A stretch of 64,000 nt of DNA from Candidatus Eiseniibacteriota bacterium (lineage in GTDB: Bacteria > Eisenbacteria > RBG-16-71-46 > JABDJR01), in contig CAWANH010000028.1 in the NCBI GenBank assembly GCA_963783375.1, forward strand, positions 1,920,001 to 1,984,000, given 5' to 3'. Positions 44,212-51,068 of this stretch are shown one piece after another; within the stretch, counting starts at the first letter, position 1, and each line of letters opens with the position of its first letter. A program made the position numbers and the translations under genes. A model generated the notes under the pieces. It worked only from the letters and a program-made list of their open reading frames with translations, was not told the origin of the DNA and searched no databases.

Positions 44212-45035
44212 CCCTTTCCCGCCCGGCGCGCTCGGCGCTCCTGCACGCGGCCCTGATCGTGGGGGCCGCCGTCACCCTCGCCCCCCTGGTCTGGATGGTC
44301 TCGGCATCCTTCATGCCCACCGGCGAGGCCAACTCCATCCCGGTACGCTTCCTCCCCAGCCGGCCGACCCTGGAGCACTACCGCGATCTCTTCACCCGGC
44401 TGAACCTGGCCCGGGTGTTCCTGAACAGCACCATCATCACCGTCACCGCCACCCTGGTCTCGGTGCTGGTGAACGCCCTGGCCGGCTACGCCTTCGCCAA
44501 GCTCCGTTTCCGGGGGCGGGACCCCCTGTTCAAGAGCCTGGCCCTGGCCCTGGTGGTCCCGGCCCAGGTGGCCATGCTGCCCCTCTTCCTGCTCCTCCGG
44601 CAGATGGGCTTCGTGAACACCTACGTCGGGGTCATGATCCCGTACTTCGCCAGCGTGTTCGGGATCTTCCTCATCCGCCAGTACGCCCTGAGCATTCCCG
44701 ACGAGCTCCTGGACGCGGCGCGGGTGGACGGGGCCAGCGAGGCCCGCGTCTTCTGGACCATCGCGGTCCCGGTGATCTCGCCGATCCTCATCACCCTGGC
44801 CGCCTTCACCTTCCTGAGCGCGTGGAACGACTTCATGTGGCCGCTCATCATCCTGAGCGACAGCCAGAACTACACCCTTCCCGTGGCCCTGGCCAACCTG
44901 GTGGGGGAGCACGTCCAGGACACCGAGCTCATGATGGCCGGCTCGGTGCTCACCGTCCTTCCCGCCCTCGGCGTGTTCCTGGTCTTCCAGCGGGCCTACG
45001 TCCGCGGGGTCATGGCGGGGAGCTTGAAGGAGTGA
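44208..45035 (+). CDS. Sugar ABC transporter permease
   Basis: AGYAFAKL.F.GR, ELLDAARVDGA, WNDF.WPL. Confidence 0.93.
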   Translation: MTLSRPARSALLHAALIVGAAVTLAPLVWMVSASFMPTGEANSIPVRFLPSRPTLEHYRDLFTRLNLARVFLNSTIITVTATLVSVLVNALAGYAFAKLRFRGRDPLFKSLALALVVPAQVAMLPLFLLLRQMGFVNTYVGVMIPYFASVFGIFLIRQYALSIPDELLDAARVDGASEARVFWTIAVPVISPILITLAAFTFLSAWNDFMWPLIILSDSQNYTLPVALANLVGEHVQDTELMMAGSVLTVLPALGVFLVFQRAYVRGVMAGSLKE

Positions 45036-48000
45036 TGCGCATGAGCTTCCGGTTCGGTTCGGCCCGGGGGGGACTGGGGGCGGCGGCGGGCGCCGCCGTG
45101 CTGCTCCTGACCGCCCTGCTCCCGGTCCGAGGCCTCGACGCGGCGGACACCGCGCCCCCGGTGCGGGTGGACGCCTTCGACGACGTGAGCGCCTGGTCCG
45201 CCCATCCCGCCGACGGGGTGAAGCTCGACATCGGTTCCGACGCGGGCTACGACGGCCGGGCCATGCGGCTGGACTTCCAGTTCCTGGGTGGCGGCGGCTA
45301 CGCGGTGGCGCGGCGAAAGGTGGACCTGGACCTCCCCGCCAACTACGCCTTCACCTTCCGGATCCGGGGCGACGCCCCCCCCGAGAACCTGGAGTTCAAG
45401 CTGATCGACGACACCGGAGAGAACGTGTGGTGGTTCGTTCGGCGGGACTTCACCTTCCCCGCGGAATGGACCACCTTGAAGACCCGGAAGCGCCAGATCC
45501 GGTTCGCCTGGGGGCCGGCCGGAGGGGGGGAGATCCACCACGTGGCCGCCCTGGAGATCGTGGTGACCGCGGGGAGCGGAGGGAAGGGAACGGTGTGGGT
45601 GGACGACCTCCGGCTCCGCCCGCTTCCGCCGCCGGACGCCAACCCGCCCGCCCCGGTGGCGAGCGCCTCGTCCGAGGCCGGCGGCCACCGGGCGCGCGCC
45701 GCCGCCGACGGCGACCCGGCCAGCTACTGGGCCGGCCGCGATTCGGATCGCGCGCCCTGGCTGATGCTCGACCTCGGGGAATCGCGCGAGTTCGGCGGGC
45801 TCGTCGTGGACTGGCTCCCCGGTCGCGCCCCCGCCGGCTACGTGGTGGAAGCGGCGGACGAGGACGGGAACTGGAAGACCCTGGCCGCGGTCGACAGCAC
45901 GAACGGCGGCCGCGACTACCTGTACCTCCCGGATTCGGAGTCGGACCGGGTGCGGATCCGGGCCACCGGTGGAGTGCCCGCGGACGGGGTGGCGGTCTCG
46001 GAGCTCGTGCTGGAGCCGGTGGCATTCTCGGCCGGCCGCGAGGTGTTCTTCGAGGCCATCGCCGCCGACGCCCCGCCGGGGATCTATCCCCGCGGTTTCT
46101 CCGGACAGCAGGTCTACTGGACGGTGGTGGGCCAGGACGGGGACCGGCGCGAGGTGCTGGTGAACGAGGACGGCGCGGTGGGGGCCGGCCCGGGTTCCTT
46201 CTCCCTCGAGCCCTTCGTTTTCACCGGCGGGAAGCTCACCACCTGGGCTGACGCCGGGGAGGACCAGAGCCTGATCCTGGGCGCCCTCCCCCTCCCCAGC
46301 GTCCGCCGGCGGATCGGGGACCTGCTCCTCGACGCCACGTTCTTCGCCGCCGGAGACACCGGCGCCTCCTCGGTGGTGGCGCGTTACCGGCTCCAGAACC
46401 GGGGCTCGGCGCGCTCCACCGGCACCCTGTACCTGGCGCTCCGTCCCTTCCAGGTGAACCCGCCCAGCCAGACCCTCAACAACCCGGGGGGATGCGCGCG
46501 GGTGGCTTCGATCGCGCGGGAGGGGCGGACGGTTCGGGTGAACGGCGACCGCGAGGTGATCTCGCTCACCGGGCCGGGCGGCTTCGGGGCGGCTTCGTTC
46601 GTCGAGGGCGGCGTGGTGGCGGATTACCTGGCCCACGATCGTCTGCCCGCCCGAATCGCGGTGCGCGACTCCTTCGAGGCCGCCTCGGCCGCTCTCGCCT
46701 ACCCCTTCGACCTCGGCCCGGGAGGGGCGCGCGAGGTGGACGTGGTGATCCCGCTCCATCCCGATTCCCCCCTCCCACCGGAAGGAAACGACGGCGACGG
46801 GGTCCGGTGGGTGCGGCAGAATTTCGACGCGGTCCGGGGGAACTGGTCGGCGGCCACCGACCGGGTGACCCTCAAGCTCCCCGACCCGACCTCGGCGGTG
46901 ACGGCCACGGTACGCGCCCAGCTCGGCTACATCCTGGTGAACCGCGCCGGCCCGGCCATCCGCCCCGGGGCGCGGGCCTACCGGCGGTCGTGGATCCGGG
47001 ACGGTTCCCTCACCTCCACCGCGCTCCTTCGCCTCGGCCACGCCGGGGAAGCGAAAGAGTTCCTCACCTGGTACGCGGCTCACCAGTACCCGAACGGCAA
47101 GATCCCCTGCGTGGTGGACGCGCGGGGGGCGGACCCCGTCCCCGAGCACGACTCGAGCGGCGAGTTCATCTACCTGGTCGCCGAGATCGAGCGGTACACC
47201 GGCGACCGGGCCCTGGCCGATTCGCTCTATCCCCGGGTCCTGGCCGCGGCGGCGTACCTGGACTCCCTCCGTCACGTGGACATGACGCCGGAGTACCGGG
47301 AGGGGGAGAAGCGGGCGTTCTACGGGATCCTCCCCCCGTCGATCAGCCACGAGGGCTACTCGGCCAAGCCGATGCACAGCTACTGGGACGACTTCTGGGC
47401 GCTTCGGGGGTTCGAAGACGCGGCCTACCTGGCCGGGCGGTTGGGGCACGAGGCCGACCGGAAGCGGCTGACCGCGATCCACGACGAGTTCCAGAAGGAC
47501 ATCCTGGCCTCGATCGCGGCGGCCATGGAGCGGCACGGAATCGATTACATCCCCGGCTGCGCGGATCTCGGGGACTTCGACGCGACCTCGACCACCATCG
47601 CGCTCTCGCCGGTGGACGCCCTGAACGTCCTCCCGCGGGACGCGGTGGACGCCACGTTTGAACGGTATTGGAAGTTCTTCACCGACCGCCGGGACGGAGC
47701 GGCGTGGGACGCGTTCACCCCGTACGAATTGCGGAACGTGGGGGCGTTCGTGCGGCTGGGCTGGCGGGAGCGGGCGGGGGAACTGCTGGACTGGTTCCTC
47801 AGGTACCAGCGTCCCGCGGGCTGGCGCCAGTGGGCCGAGGTGGTGGCGCACGACGAGCGGAAGCCCCGGTTCATCGGGGACATGCCCCACACCTGGGTAG
47901 GCTCGGACTACATCCGCTCGGTGCTCGACATGCTGGCCTACGAGCGGGGGGCGGACAGCACCCTGGTGCTGGGGGCGGGGGTCCAGGCGGCCTGGATCGA

Positions 48001-48313
48001 GGGCTCCGGGCTCCTGGTGCGCGGACTGGAAACGCCGTTCGGAAAGCTCAGCTACCTCATGAAGCACGACGGGAACGAGGTCACGGTACGGATCGACAAG
48101 GGGCTCCGGATCCCGCCGGGGGGGATCGTGGTGGCTCCGCCGGCGCCCGCGGGGGCGGCGGGGGTGTCGGGGGCGGAGGGCGCGGAGGGCGCGGAGGGCG
48201 CTGCCCCGCCCGCGTTCAAGGAGGCCTACGTGAACGCGAAGGCGGCGGCCTTGAGCCCCGAGGGGACGGTGGTGGTGCGCGAGGTACCGGCCACGGTGCA
48301 GTTCCGGTACTGA
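45035..48313 (+). CDS. Secreted discoidin (F5/8)-domain protein with six-hairpin glycosidase-like C-terminus
   Basis: Signal peptide, CBM-like N domain, ASAS...A.DGD..S.W F5/8 motif, Y.RSWIRDG, SISHEGY, HSYWDDFW, GDMPHTW. Confidence 0.78.
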   Translation: MRMSFRFGSARGGLGAAAGAAVLLLTALLPVRGLDAADTAPPVRVDAFDDVSAWSAHPADGVKLDIGSDAGYDGRAMRLDFQFLGGGGYAVARRKVDLDLPANYAFTFRIRGDAPPENLEFKLIDDTGENVWWFVRRDFTFPAEWTTLKTRKRQIRFAWGPAGGGEIHHVAALEIVVTAGSGGKGTVWVDDLRLRPLPPPDANPPAPVASASSEAGGHRARAAADGDPASYWAGRDSDRAPWLMLDLGESREFGGLVVDWLPGRAPAGYVVEAADEDGNWKTLAAVDSTNGGRDYLYLPDSESDRVRIRATGGVPADGVAVSELVLEPVAFSAGREVFFEAIAADAPPGIYPRGFSGQQVYWTVVGQDGDRREVLVNEDGAVGAGPGSFSLEPFVFTGGKLTTWADAGEDQSLILGALPLPSVRRRIGDLLLDATFFAAGDTGASSVVARYRLQNRGSARSTGTLYLALRPFQVNPPSQTLNNPGGCARVASIAREGRTVRVNGDREVISLTGPGGFGAASFVEGGVVADYLAHDRLPARIAVRDSFEAASAALAYPFDLGPGGAREVDVVIPLHPDSPLPPEGNDGDGVRWVRQNFDAVRGNWSAATDRVTLKLPDPTSAVTATVRAQLGYILVNRAGPAIRPGARAYRRSWIRDGSLTSTALLRLGHAGEAKEFLTWYAAHQYPNGKIPCVVDARGADPVPEHDSSGEFIYLVAEIERYTGDRALADSLYPRVLAAAAYLDSLRHVDMTPEYREGEKRAFYGILPPSISHEGYSAKPMHSYWDDFWALRGFEDAAYLAGRLGHEADRKRLTAIHDEFQKDILASIAAAMERHGIDYIPGCADLGDFDATSTTIALSPVDALNVLPRDAVDATFERYWKFFTDRRDGAAWDAFTPYELRNVGAFVRLGWRERAGELLDWFLRYQRPAGWRQWAEVVAHDERKPRFIGDMPHTWVGSDYIRSVLDMLAYERGADSTLVLGAGVQAAWIEGSGLLVRGLETPFGKLSYLMKHDGNEVTVRIDKGLRIPPGGIVVAPPAPAGAAGVSGAEGAEGAEGAAPPAFKEAYVNAKAAALSPEGTVVVREVPATVQFRY

Positions 48314-48661
48314 TCCGGAGACGGGGCCCGTGCTCGTCGGTTGCAGGCAGGCGTTGTTCCTCGGGGGAGCTCCGGGCGCGGCCGTCGGACGGGTGCACCT
48401 CCCGCTTCTCGGGCCCGTTCCCTCGAAACGTCCCCCGAACGTTTCTTCGGTCACTCCGCCGGCGCGAGGGGGCCCCGTCACCGCCTCGCCTTCGGCTCGC
48501 CGGAGCCGCCCATCGCGCCGCCGAGCCTCTCGTCGCGCGAGGTGCACGCCGTCCTCGGCCGCGACCACGTCCCTCCCGGCGCGCTGTGGCGACTCGCTCC
48601 CGTTCACATGCCGTCTTGGCCCCGTGGATACCAGAATCCCGAAGGACGTAGTCATGACAAG

Positions 48662-49246
48662 GTTCGCGATAGAGACTTCAGTGCGACCCCGGGAACGAAC
48701 CGGTCCATCCCGCGGGCGCGGACCCGAAGTTCACCCGGGTGAACTCGTGCTTCCCCGGGGAAGCAATGTTCGCGATAAAGGTGTCGCCAAGAGAGGCCCG
48801 CGCGCGTTCAGCCGTCGAGCGCGTGACCGGCCCGAGCCGGTCCATCCCGCGGACGCGGACCCGAAGTTCACCCGGGTGTACTTGTGCTTCCCCGGGGAAG
48901 CAATGTTCGCGATAAAGGTGTCGCCAAGAGAGGCCCGCGCGCGTTCATCTGTCGAGCGCGTGACCGGCCCGAGCCGGCCCATCCCGCGGGCGCGGACCCG
49001 AAGTTCACCCGGGTGAACACGCGCTTCCCCGGGGAGGCAATGTTCGCGATAAAGGTGTCGCCAAGAGAGGCCCGCGCGCGTTCATCTGTCGAGCGCGTGA
49101 CCGGCCCGAGCCGGCCCGTCCCCGGACGCGGACACGCAGCACACCAGGGCGTACCCTGAGTTCACCCGGGTTTACTCCTGCTTCCCCGGGGAAGCAATGT
49201 TCGCAATAAAGTCTTTAGTGCGAACAAAATTCACCCGGGTGAACTT
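48662..49246. repeat. 137-bp tandem repeat (3 copies plus a degenerate fourth) rich in palindromes, bracketed by inverted-repeat sites
   Basis: Units start at 48700, 48837, 48974 and 49111; each has GTTCACCCGGGTGAAC, TGCTTCCCCGGGGAAGCA and GTTCGCGATA with minor variants; full inverted sites at 48662-48687 and 49199-49225. Confidence 0.92.
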
Positions 49247-49255
49247 CGCCGCACC

Positions 49256-49561
49256 TCACCCCGCCTTGCGCAGAACCTGGACCTCGGCGACGAGACGTTC
49301 GCCCAATCGGTCCTTCTCCGTCTCGAGGTCGAAACGGACCTGCAGGTTGAGCCAGAAGCGGTCCGTGGTGCCGAAGTACCGGGCCAGCCGGAGGGCGGTG
49401 TCGGCGTTGATGCCGCGGGTGCCGTGGACAATATCATTGATCCGCCGCGGCGGTACGGAGATGTCCTTGGCCAGGCGGTACTTGCTGATTTCCAGTGGAT
49501 GGAGAAACTCCTCCAGAAGAATCTCTCCGGGGTGCGTCGGTGGGAGCTTTCTTGCCGGCAT
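49256..49561 (-). CDS. higA: HigA-family addiction module antitoxin
   Basis: HPGEIL.EEFL.PL.IS.Y.LA, ADTALRLARYFGT...FWLNLQ..FDL. Confidence 0.95.
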   Translation of the reverse strand: MPARKLPPTHPGEILLEEFLHPLEISKYRLAKDISVPPRRINDIVHGTRGINADTALRLARYFGTTDRFWLNLQVRFDLETEKDRLGERLVAEVQVLRKAG

Positions 49562-49563
49562 GA

Positions 49564-49659
49564 TCAACCCCGGTGATGGTCAACGATCTCCACGTCGTGG
49601 GCGTCTCCGCCCGCCCAACGGAAACAGACACGCCATTGATCGTTGATCCGGATGCTGTA
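49564..49659 (-). pseudogene. higB: C-terminal fragment of HigB (RelE/ParE) toxin
   Basis: YSIRINDQWRVCFRW..GDA.DVEIVDHH*; no start codon, only about 24 nt from the GH1 stop. Confidence 0.85.
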
Positions 49660-49682
49660 GCGCGTTTTCCGGGCGCCCGTGC

Positions 49683-51068
49683 CTACTCGTCCAGCGCCGC
49701 GCCGTGGGTCGCGATGACCCGCCGGTAGAAGTCCGCGCTCGACTTCAACGTCCGCTCCCCGGTGGCGTGGTTCACGTGGATCAGGCCGAAGCGCATGGAG
49801 GTGCCGAGCGCCCACTCCACGTTGTCGAGGAGCGACCAGGCGAAGTAGCCGCGGACGTCGGCGCCCTGCCGGATGGCCTCGTGGAGGGCGCGCAGGTGGC
49901 TCCGGAGATACGCCGTGCGGCGGGGATCGTCGACCCGGCCCCCCGCCGCCACCGGCGGGTCCGGAAACGCCGCCCCGTTCTCGGTGATGTAGAGGGGGCG
50001 GTCGCCGTAGCGCTCCTTCACCCACAGGAGGACGTCGGTGAAGCTCGGGGGGTATACCTCCCAGCCGATGTCGGTGACCTCGATCCCGGGCTGGCGGACC
50101 GGTCGCGCGGGAACCGGCCGGGTCGTCGGGTCGTGAGCCACCACCGCGCGGGTGTAGTAGTTCACCCCCAGGAAGTCCACCGGCTCGCCGATCAGCGCGA
50201 AGTCCTCGGGGGAGTAATCGACCCAGGCCTCGCCGTAGATCCCGGGCAGCTCCTCCGGGTTCCTCCCCAGGAACACCGGGTCCAGGAACTGCCGGTTCAT
50301 GTAGGCGTCGGCGAGCGCGGTGGCCCGAAGGTCCTCCGGCGACTCCGAAGCCGGGAGCTTGGGCTCCAGGTTCACCACCAGGCCGATCCGCCCTGACGAT
50401 TCCGACCGGAACGCCTGGACCGCGGCGCCGTGGGCGCGGAGGAGATTCCGGGCGGCCCGCGCCGCCTCGAAGAGACTCCGGTGGCCCGGGGCGTGGACGC
50501 CGTGGAGGTAGCCGGCGTCGACCACCACCCAGGGCTCGTTCAGGGTCATCCACCCCTTCACCCGGTCGCCCAGGGCCCGTGCCACGGTCAGGGTGTAGTC
50601 GGCGAACCACGAGGCGACGTCGGGATTGAGCCAGCCTCCGCGATCGTCCAGCGCCGCGGGGAGGTCCCAGTGGTAGAGGGTCGCCCAGGGCTCGATCCCC
50701 CGCTCGAGGAGCCCGTCCACCAGCCGGTCGTAGAAACCCAATCCGGCGAGGTTGACCGCGCCGCGGCCCTCCGGGAACACCCGGGCCCAGGCGATCGAGA
50801 ACCGGTAGGCGTCGAGGCCGAGCCCGCCCATGAGCGCCACGTCTTCCGGCCAGCGGTGGTAGTGGTCGCAGGCGCGGTCGCCGGTCTCGCCGTTTCGGGT
50901 CATGCCGGGGGTGTGGGAGAAGCGGTGCCAGATGCTGGGGCCGGCCCCGTCGGCCAGGGGGGAGCCCTCGATCTGATAGGCCGAGGTGGCCGCCCCCCAG
51001 AGAAACCCTTCGGGGAAGCGGCCCGCCGCCGCTCCGGCCGAACCGGGATCGTTTGCTTCCGGGCCCAC
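49683..51068 (-). CDS. Beta-glucosidase GH1
   Basis: FLWGAATSAYQIEG, TLNEP, ITENG catalytic motifs. Confidence 0.95.
   Translation of the reverse strand: MGPEANDPGSAGAAAGRFPEGFLWGAATSAYQIEGSPLADGAGPSIWHRFSHTPGMTRNGETGDRACDHYHRWPEDVALMGGLGLDAYRFSIAWARVFPEGRGAVNLAGLGFYDRLVDGLLERGIEPWATLYHWDLPAALDDRGGWLNPDVASWFADYTLTVARALGDRVKGWMTLNEPWVVVDAGYLHGVHAPGHRSLFEAARAARNLLRAHGAAVQAFRSESSGRIGLVVNLEPKLPASESPEDLRATALADAYMNRQFLDPVFLGRNPEELPGIYGEAWVDYSPEDFALIGEPVDFLGVNYYTRAVVAHDPTTRPVPARPVRQPGIEVTDIGWEVYPPSFTDVLLWVKERYGDRPLYITENGAAFPDPPVAAGGRVDDPRRTAYLRSHLRALHEAIRQGADVRGYFAWSLLDNVEWALGTSMRFGLIHVNHATGERTLKSSADFYRRVIATHGAALDE

Follow-up and report, generated by a model that had tools for sequence, protein, structure and literature searches.

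Repetitive extragenic palindromes (REPs), with bacterial interspersed mosaic elements (BIMEs), REP doublets forming hairpins (REPINs) and the RAYT enzymes, are among the closest described counterparts of the element studied here, an array of palindrome-bearing repeats at positions 48662 to 49246 of a 64,000-nucleotide stretch (the window) of the genome of a Candidatus Eiseniibacteriota bacterium (contig CAWANH010000028.1; the genome is called G000 below). As far as the accessible text of PMC3733652 and PMC3116915 goes, REPs and the array share short oriented extragenic palindromes, inverted dimers and tandem mosaics that include flanking DNA, and in both the repeats turn over rapidly from lineage to lineage and also frame the gene of a candidate enzyme. 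In contrast to the REP/BIME-RAYT systems, the array has no RAYT match and no GTAG or CGTC tag, and its dyad is loop-free with mixed half-sites. Its candidate enzyme also differs from RAYT: it is an HNH nuclease encoded in several copies, for which a domain binding double-stranded DNA is predicted, and it has a palindrome in its own coding linker.

Two other systems are comparable. In Neisseria, the available parts of PMC11893778 describe a non-transposase nuclease gene, ssn (SsnA), that has NTS repeats of its own on its flanks, with orphan clusters as well and an own repeat variant for each homolog, all of which is similar here; however, Ssn is a small single-domain GIY-YIG protein acting on single-stranded hairpins, whereas the partner at our locus is a multi-domain HNH protein of 450-560 aa. 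The REP13E12 (DUF222-HNH) genes of Mycobacterium tuberculosis are likewise multi-copy and dispersed, and 5 of 120 listed homologs of our partner protein carry PF02720 (DUF222) together with PF01844 in precomputed annotation; one homolog bears the label Candidatus Eisenbacteria. They differ from our case in that the array contains no gene and the partner protein (P0001) has no PF02720 match. The portions of PMC13061034 and PMC13157036 available to us describe REP13E12 genes as recombination hotspots without a defined function. The partner protein probably belongs with or near these genes. A search of a literature collection with few subscription journals found nothing joining the DUF222-HNH family to palindromes or orphan arrays.

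We consider it rather probable that the array is a gene-free member of an intergenic repeat family whose 16-bp palindromes are the likely binding sites of a multi-copy, likely selfish HNH nuclease with a predicted ParB/Noc-like DNA-binding domain, encoded elsewhere in the genome. We base this on the repeat family, its unit, its intergenic position and the empty site in relatives, and on the dyads that the nuclease genes carry in their leaders and linkers and at their 3' ends, with variants that match genome by genome. The orphan-array family and this matching are what the locus newly provides.

The array and its intergenic repeat family

The array is built of plus-strand units with a period of 137 bp (Tandem Repeats Finder: 3.2 copies, 94% matches, score 778) that start at 48696, 48833 and 48970. 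Unit 1 (48696..48832) consists of two dyads (48729-48744 and 48748-48765) and a 13-bp tail (48768-48780), followed by a linker; units 2 (48833..48969) and 3 (48970..49106) are about 95% and about 94% identical to it. Unit 4 (49107..49211), whose linker has diverged, is 20 bp longer; its dyads are at 49160-49175 and 49179-49196, its tail is at 49199-49211, and its core lies 157 bp after that of the third unit. The first dyad, GTTCACCCGGGTGAAC, is found in every unit (48729, 48866, 49003 and 49160; imperfect in copies 2 and 4), as are the second, TGCTTCCCCGGGGAAGCA (48748, 48885, 49022 and 49179; imperfect in copy 3), and the tail, GTTCGCRATAAAG (48768, 48905, 49042 and 49199). The three units with a fourth, and the stacked CCCGGG palindromes with a half site in each, had been noticed in an earlier reading of the sequence (the original prediction) and were borne out.

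At its right end the array closes with an inverted dimer (49199..49246), in which the tail of unit 4 meets the tail of a minus-strand unit (dyad at 49229-49244). The dimer contains a 27-bp near-perfect palindrome with a one-base centre, and its 7-bp spacer, AAG-T-CTT, is itself palindromic. At the left end, positions 48662..48687 hold a degenerate tail-to-tail junction, similar in form to the junctions listed genome-wide and too degenerate for that list. Inverted sites are thus present at 48662 and 49199 as first described, but the one at 49199 is formed by two units placed tail to tail around a palindromic spacer. The sequence of the array had also been described correctly, but its extent had been drawn too narrowly, as a further module of the same system, a long imperfect hairpin, lies at about 48362..48517 (plus strand). 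Of the 17 genomic loci of this module, 10 fall within 1 kb of an array with tails; the module also adjoins HNH genes in the related genome G003.

The array is non-coding and amplified in tandem, as the original prediction held. No match was found in an Rfam search of the array at E<=1, in promoter and terminator scans over 48250-49750, or at the array in a tblastn search with the HNH gene, which leaves it without a gene of the DUF222-HNH kind. It is not a CRISPR, as the units are 94-95% identical and there are no unique spacers. Both array junctions are matched without differences by contigs of sequencing run X1 (48586-48758 and 49182-49584). X1 is possibly the source sample and no X1 contig covers the whole array, so the unit count is without independent confirmation. 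None of the listed holders of the sequence was an RNA data set, which has no bearing on expression.

A degenerate core pattern gave 87 matches in 24 clusters across the 4.7 Mb of the genome, whereas a simulated sequence of the same length (order-5 Markov) gave none; one single-copy cluster among the 24 resembles chance. The family unit is a 16-bp CCCGGG-centred dyad followed by 3 bp and the 13-bp tail, and in 68 of the 87 matches the tail lies exactly 11 nt from the centre of the CCGG dyad. With gene positions taken from a simple in-house caller, which makes all intergenic counts approximate, 85 tailed 32-bp units are intergenic (the remaining 2 of the 87 are chance-like in-gene matches) and 103 of 106 family dyads lie outside predicted genes. 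By the layout of its units the family resembles REPs and BIMEs, with palindromic, extragenic, multi-copy units of 20-40 bp that form dimers and tandem mosaics, and the original view that the array does not look like a classical REP is not supported. In the dyads the half-sites GCTTCCCC, TTGCACCC, GTGTACCC and GTTCACCC are combined in varying pairs: only 40 of the 87 dyads are perfect over 12 bp, and many join two different half-sites. This fits the recognition of half-sites in double-stranded DNA better than the recognition of a hairpin.

Most tails are single. Sixteen tail-to-tail junctions are listed genome-wide, nearly all of them preceded by a dyad; the spacer is self-complementary at 49199 and at a perfect copy on C28, and in the other 14 it varies around the AAG-T-CTT form. 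A perfect lone tail-to-tail palindrome without a dyad was seen at the edge of a lower-GC stretch (L001:4903-4935, G000:C28:1664902-1664934), and at G000:C29:1192528 a single dyad is flanked by tails on both sides at an equal 3-bp spacing, which is a fully symmetric form of the unit. Among eight family genomes compared, only G000 and G002, the genome closest to it, have the tailed unit in abundance; G003 bears its own tandem arrays with different tails. A search of viral_contigs for dyad plus tail gave one match, in a gene and chance-like.

Neighbours of the 24 clusters are mostly ordinary-looking genes, judged from their first 70 residues. Of the three dinB-like genes, two are directly followed by an array, 57 and 124 bp downstream (G000:C28:219857 and C28:1317464); this adjacency was noticed post hoc and may reflect chance or a link to DNA damage. 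Other palindromes are abundant in G000 as well: GCCGAGGCCTCGGC (47 copies) and TCCGAGGCCTCGGA (12 copies) lie mostly in genes and resemble the HIP-type AGGCCT motif, and all seven copies of TTGGACCGGTCCAA are intergenic, possibly as a regulator site.

Palindromes in and beside the HNH nuclease genes

Two of the arrays lie directly upstream of paralogous HNH genes. G000 has five full-length HNH loci and three short HNH-only matches (tblastn), and one of the five copies is interrupted. The protein, P0001, carries a C-terminal HNH domain (PF01844, E 5e-9), and the motif HH...N...CxxCH, with the catalytic and zinc residues, is present in 5/5 copies. A search with four half-sites taken from the arrays found a family dyad within 350 bp upstream of 5/5 HNH genes, two of which are near-identical, compared to 52/3754 genes at 2 mismatches; the stricter counts were 3/5 versus 21 genes at 1 mismatch and 1/5 versus 8 at 0. 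Dyads are also found in the HNH coding linker and at the 3' ends of the genes, and in the near-identical pair the leader dyad and the in-gene linker dyad are one identical 17-mer. The tie to a DNA-processing enzyme in the original prediction is probably right, although the enzymes it named are not those found. It had proposed to look for a tyrosine recombinase or an HUH/RAYT gene beside a copy; RAYT was rejected as partner because the 97% complete genome has no PF01797 match, and the tyrosine recombinases because the nearest of the five lies 33 kb from an array. A GIY-YIG partner of the Ssn type was rejected too, the two matches lying in long open reading frames (ORFs) far from arrays.

The sites of the gene vary from one related genome to another. 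Matches were found in 9 of 41 related genomes, with up to 13 per genome. In G000, the positions that correspond to many HNH sites of G001, G003 and G004 are syntenic gaps lacking the gene, and G001 and G003 are empty at one site that is occupied in G000. For eight HNH copies of G001, the alignment begins and ends at dyads. Just behind two G001 HNH genes (L146, L148), an insertion sequence with a transposase-like ORF lies in the dyad cluster. One intergenic site (G000:C28:196600-200100, L149, L164) is occupied by an HNH gene in G000, G001 and G003, and the dyad variant differs among the three; it is an old shared site at which gene and palindrome diverged together. In G015 a palindrome of the single HNH gene (L216, C35) lies over the promoter, 71 bp before the profile match, and resembles the Gram-positive SOS box. 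In G000 no shared SOS box was seen by eye in the HNH leaders or upstream of recA or the lexA-like gene.

For most of the relatives tested, the variant that has expanded across the genome is the one next to the nuclease gene. The dyad at a genome's own HNH genes, within or adjoining them, is one of its abundant dyads. TCACCCGGGTGA occurs 70 times in G004, 31 in G000, 23 in G002, 10 in G007, 5 each in G001 and G003, once in G006 and not at all in G005, and RTACCCGGGTAY 45 times in G003, 13 in G002, 10 in G001, 4 in G004 and once in G006. TGCACCCGGGTRC gave 37 strand hits in G001, 12 in G002, 2 in G003 and none in G004 or G006, and TTCCCCGGGGAA is present 35 times in G000, 17 in G003, 10 in G006 and 0-6 times in the remaining genomes. 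The HNH gene of G002 has the first palindrome of our array in its linker and clusters with two G000 genes (SH-aLRT 96). Outside the family the same prediction passed for G020, where the dyad of the genes has 15 sites, 9 of them away from the fetched gene loci; elsewhere it has 8 sites in G006, whose genes share the dyad, and 0-1 in each of the remaining 39. When a loose dyad pattern was run over 41 genomes, the median ratio to control was 5.8 in the 9 gene-bearing genomes versus 2.6 in the 32 others, which is only weakly informative as the top ratio belonged to a genome that lacks the gene and related genomes are not independent.

The palindromes within the genes were compared to codon shuffles at 59 of 120 loci (the others had no anchor, were duplicates or ended too near). 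They exceeded the shuffles at p<=0.05 in 21/59 genes, the DNA and peptide sequences differ, and both arms of the palindrome change jointly between clades. In a covariation test that took 40 of 73 N-terminal domains (N-domains), palindrome distance tracked the N-domain (0.42) more than the HNH domain (0.25). The disordered linker of P0001 (about residues 170-235, L021:4300-4500) also contains a five-fold 14-residue tandem repeat, which shows that local duplication occurs inside the gene too.

The protein was modelled from a 41-sequence alignment. In the model, disordered linkers join a confidently predicted N-domain (about residues 10-140), a small domain in the middle and a zinc-finger/HNH domain; a single-sequence model of the N-domain was poor (predicted local distance difference test score, pLDDT, 56). 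The best fold matches of the N-domain are the DNA-binding domains of ParB, Spo0J, KorB and Noc, among them 6s6h (VIA search; Z 7.3, under the caution level of 8, with a root-mean-square deviation of 2.9 over 99 aligned residues) and, in Foldseek, the Noc-NBS (Noc-binding site) complex 6y93 (TM 0.77 on target, E 0.14). An AR motif aligns weakly with the G201-R204 helix of ParB. A sequence search of the PDB with the HNH protein returned HNH-domain matches only. The middle domain modelled as a homodimer scored 0.63 versus 0.00 for the best of three controls, on a scale whose mark is reached by 20/30 solved pairs and 1/23 single chains; the runs shared at least 91% of contacts with pLDDT of at least 74. 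The N-domain is thus predicted to resemble the ParB/Noc DNA-binding domain and the middle domain to form a dimer.

The predicted sites resemble those of ParB and Noc as well. In the available text of PMC7383237, the consensuses are TGTTTCAC-GTGAAACA for parS and TATTTCCC-GGGAAATA for NBS, both 16-bp dyads with a CG centre, which in NBS is CCCGGG. Our dyads are alike in being 16 bp long and CG-centred, and the DNA-binding fold is predicted to be similar. In contrast to ParB and Noc, however, the HNH protein has no CTPase domain and is fused to a nuclease, and the array dyads are off both consensuses, tandem and variable between species, with the ParB/parS of the host separate from them. G000 has a single HTH_ParB match, and its parB with three canonical parS sites lies at G000:C28:767465-770217, which likely marks the origin region. 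Within 2 mismatches, the genome has parS only at these three sites by parB and no NBS.

Neighbouring genes and the site in relatives

The array lies between two host genes that converge on it, one for a protein with an F5/8 carbohydrate-binding domain (45035..48313, plus strand) and one for a glycoside hydrolase of family 1, a beta-glucosidase (49683..51068, minus strand). Between the array and the latter are an apparently intact higA antitoxin gene (49256..49561, minus strand; TIGR02607, E 5.8e-31) and a 3' remnant of higB (49564..49680, minus strand), which is 5'-truncated (Pfam positions 58-91 of 91) and abuts the stop of the beta-glucosidase gene. As originally described, higA ends 10 bp beyond the array, with its stop at 49256-49258, and the toxin-antitoxin pair is a remnant.

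In G001 and G004 the two host genes abut directly, leaving an empty site. In G003 there are about 115 bp between them with one degenerate dyad. The array and higBA are missing from the locus in G001, G003 and G004, higA among them, and both are thus lineage-specific additions. G002 keeps the higB remnant, and both of its contigs end at the site. The suggested link of such repeats to toxin-antitoxin genes was not upheld, as 15.5 kb separate the genome's other higA-like gene from the nearest array and cluster neighbours are mostly ordinary; the higBA remnant is likely a bystander. About 470 bp separate a second array (L023:2451-2858, G000:C28:1943450-1943857) from an AAA_28-like gene that appears to be 5'-truncated (a weak profile match, 66-164 of 164), an arrangement that echoes the truncated higB at the main array.

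Alternative explanations and implications

Several observations weigh against the nuclease reading. The fold match of the N-domain stays under Z 8 and Foldseek gave no match at E 0.001, and in a profile comparison the HNH protein matched the ParB of its own genome with a probability of 0.07%. The tail is confined to G000 and G002 and is absent beside the in-gene dyads. Outside the family the prediction failed for G015, in which the palindrome is unexpanded (2 sites, as in G020). G013 has five HNH genes without a consistent palindrome, and G007, which is 75% complete, has 10 copies of one dyad and no HNH gene match. Linker palindromes did not significantly exceed a downstream control window (Wilcoxon p 0.083), because some clades carry the palindrome downstream. 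With the rest of the protein held constant, the predicted recognition helix gave a partial r of 0.015 (40 loci), so the variant matching may be mere co-inheritance; the next helix peaks at 0.51, a value found post hoc and maybe owed to one clade. Finally, only 1 of 21 G000 gaps orthologous to occupied sites of relatives has a family dyad, which speaks against simple homing into old dyads.

The main rival to the nuclease reading is that the dyads are ends or operators of nuclease cassettes, which the enzyme does not spread, and that each array is what a lost cassette left behind, later multiplied and made uniform by slippage and gene conversion in the host. The HNH genes themselves are indeed flanked by tandem arrays with different tails, one G003 gap that holds a gene in G000 has a dyad and no gene, the tail is like the leader of two G000 HNH genes in 11/12 bases, and REP13E12 loci are gene-conversion hotspots in M. 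tuberculosis in the available part of PMC13061034. However, this explanation requires more than 20 independent losses in one lineage with no gene remnants beyond the full-length and short tblastn matches given above, and the presence of one long linker module at several distant loci suggests that gene-free modules are copied. We regard it as unlikely. We hold it improbable that the arrays are classical REP/BIME elements of a lost or unassembled HUH (RAYT) enzyme or of an Ssn single-strand nuclease, with HNH cassettes merely inserting into the repeats. The oriented unit of about 32 bp with its dimers and tandem mosaics does look like the extragenic REPs in the accessible text of PMC3733652 and PMC3116915, the terminal dimer folds well as a single strand (49140-49255, z -7.9), and convergent gaps are over-represented (9/24 clusters versus 279/2230 gaps). 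In contrast, folding is only weak for the complete 137-bp unit (z -1.7 and -1.3), the flanks of 87/87 listed units have no GTAG or CGTC tag, and of the two GIY-YIG matches one is >400 kb from an array and the other on an array-free contig. RAYT is missing as described above, with a copy lost from the assembly being possible, and the dyads in the HNH coding linker and the matching of variants across genomes would be left unexplained. By these enzyme and tag tests the array family is set apart from both REP-RAYT and NTS-Ssn.

It is very improbable that the dyads are sites of a host protein, such as a chromosomal ParB/Noc-like organiser or a regulator, to which the HNH link is secondary. They are like NBS in length and centre, but the only HTH_ParB match of the genome comes with its own parS sites, NBS is absent at the mismatch level searched, and the dyad variant turns over within one genus. 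The idea of the original prediction, that tyrosine-recombinase core sites amplified the array and captured a toxin-antitoxin fragment, is barely credible and already largely refuted. It drew on the arms of about 10 bp that enclose a 7-bp spacer at 48662 and 49199, and the array and the higBA remnant are indeed both missing at the locus in the three relatives. The spacers of dif and loxP are directional and asymmetric, 6-8 bp long, between inverted arms. Here, however, the spacer is self-complementary in the best copies, the tail keeps a fixed spacing to the dyad and mostly occurs singly, no tyrosine recombinase is nearer than 33 kb to any array, and the full tail palindrome has only 2 unrelated matches in the genome_contigs collection.

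We therefore read the array as probable REP/BIME-like passenger repeats of a likely selfish HNH element with a predicted ParB-like domain, whose binding and cutting are putative. In this mechanism a protein dimer would bind the double-stranded dyad, and its tethered HNH domain would nick or cut close by. If other copies served as template for repairing the break, gene cassettes as well as gene-free modules could reach new gaps, and tandem and inverted mosaics such as this array could be built. The 13-bp tail is likely either a second contact site or a part of the cassette leader that became frozen. Small zinc-ribbon HNH domains are described as nickases that a fused binding domain can target (in the available text of PMC3592412).

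REP-like repeats without RAYT have no known maker, and the locus ties such repeats to DUF222-HNH (13E12) genes. It also offers matched protein-site pairs across several related genomes, which allows specificity to be tested directly. A bolder proposal, which we advance tentatively and hold to be somewhat on the doubtful side, is that the members of the DUF222-like/HNH family form a large natural class of site-specific nucleases guided by protein, with ParB-derived DNA-binding domains and an own 16-bp palindrome in each gene. They would be a third 'REP engine' next to RAYT and Ssn, which copies its cassette and gives rise to whole families of non-autonomous palindrome arrays, this one among them. 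If true, this would account for a class of orphan palindrome arrays and would indicate a natural library of nucleases with different 16-bp targets.
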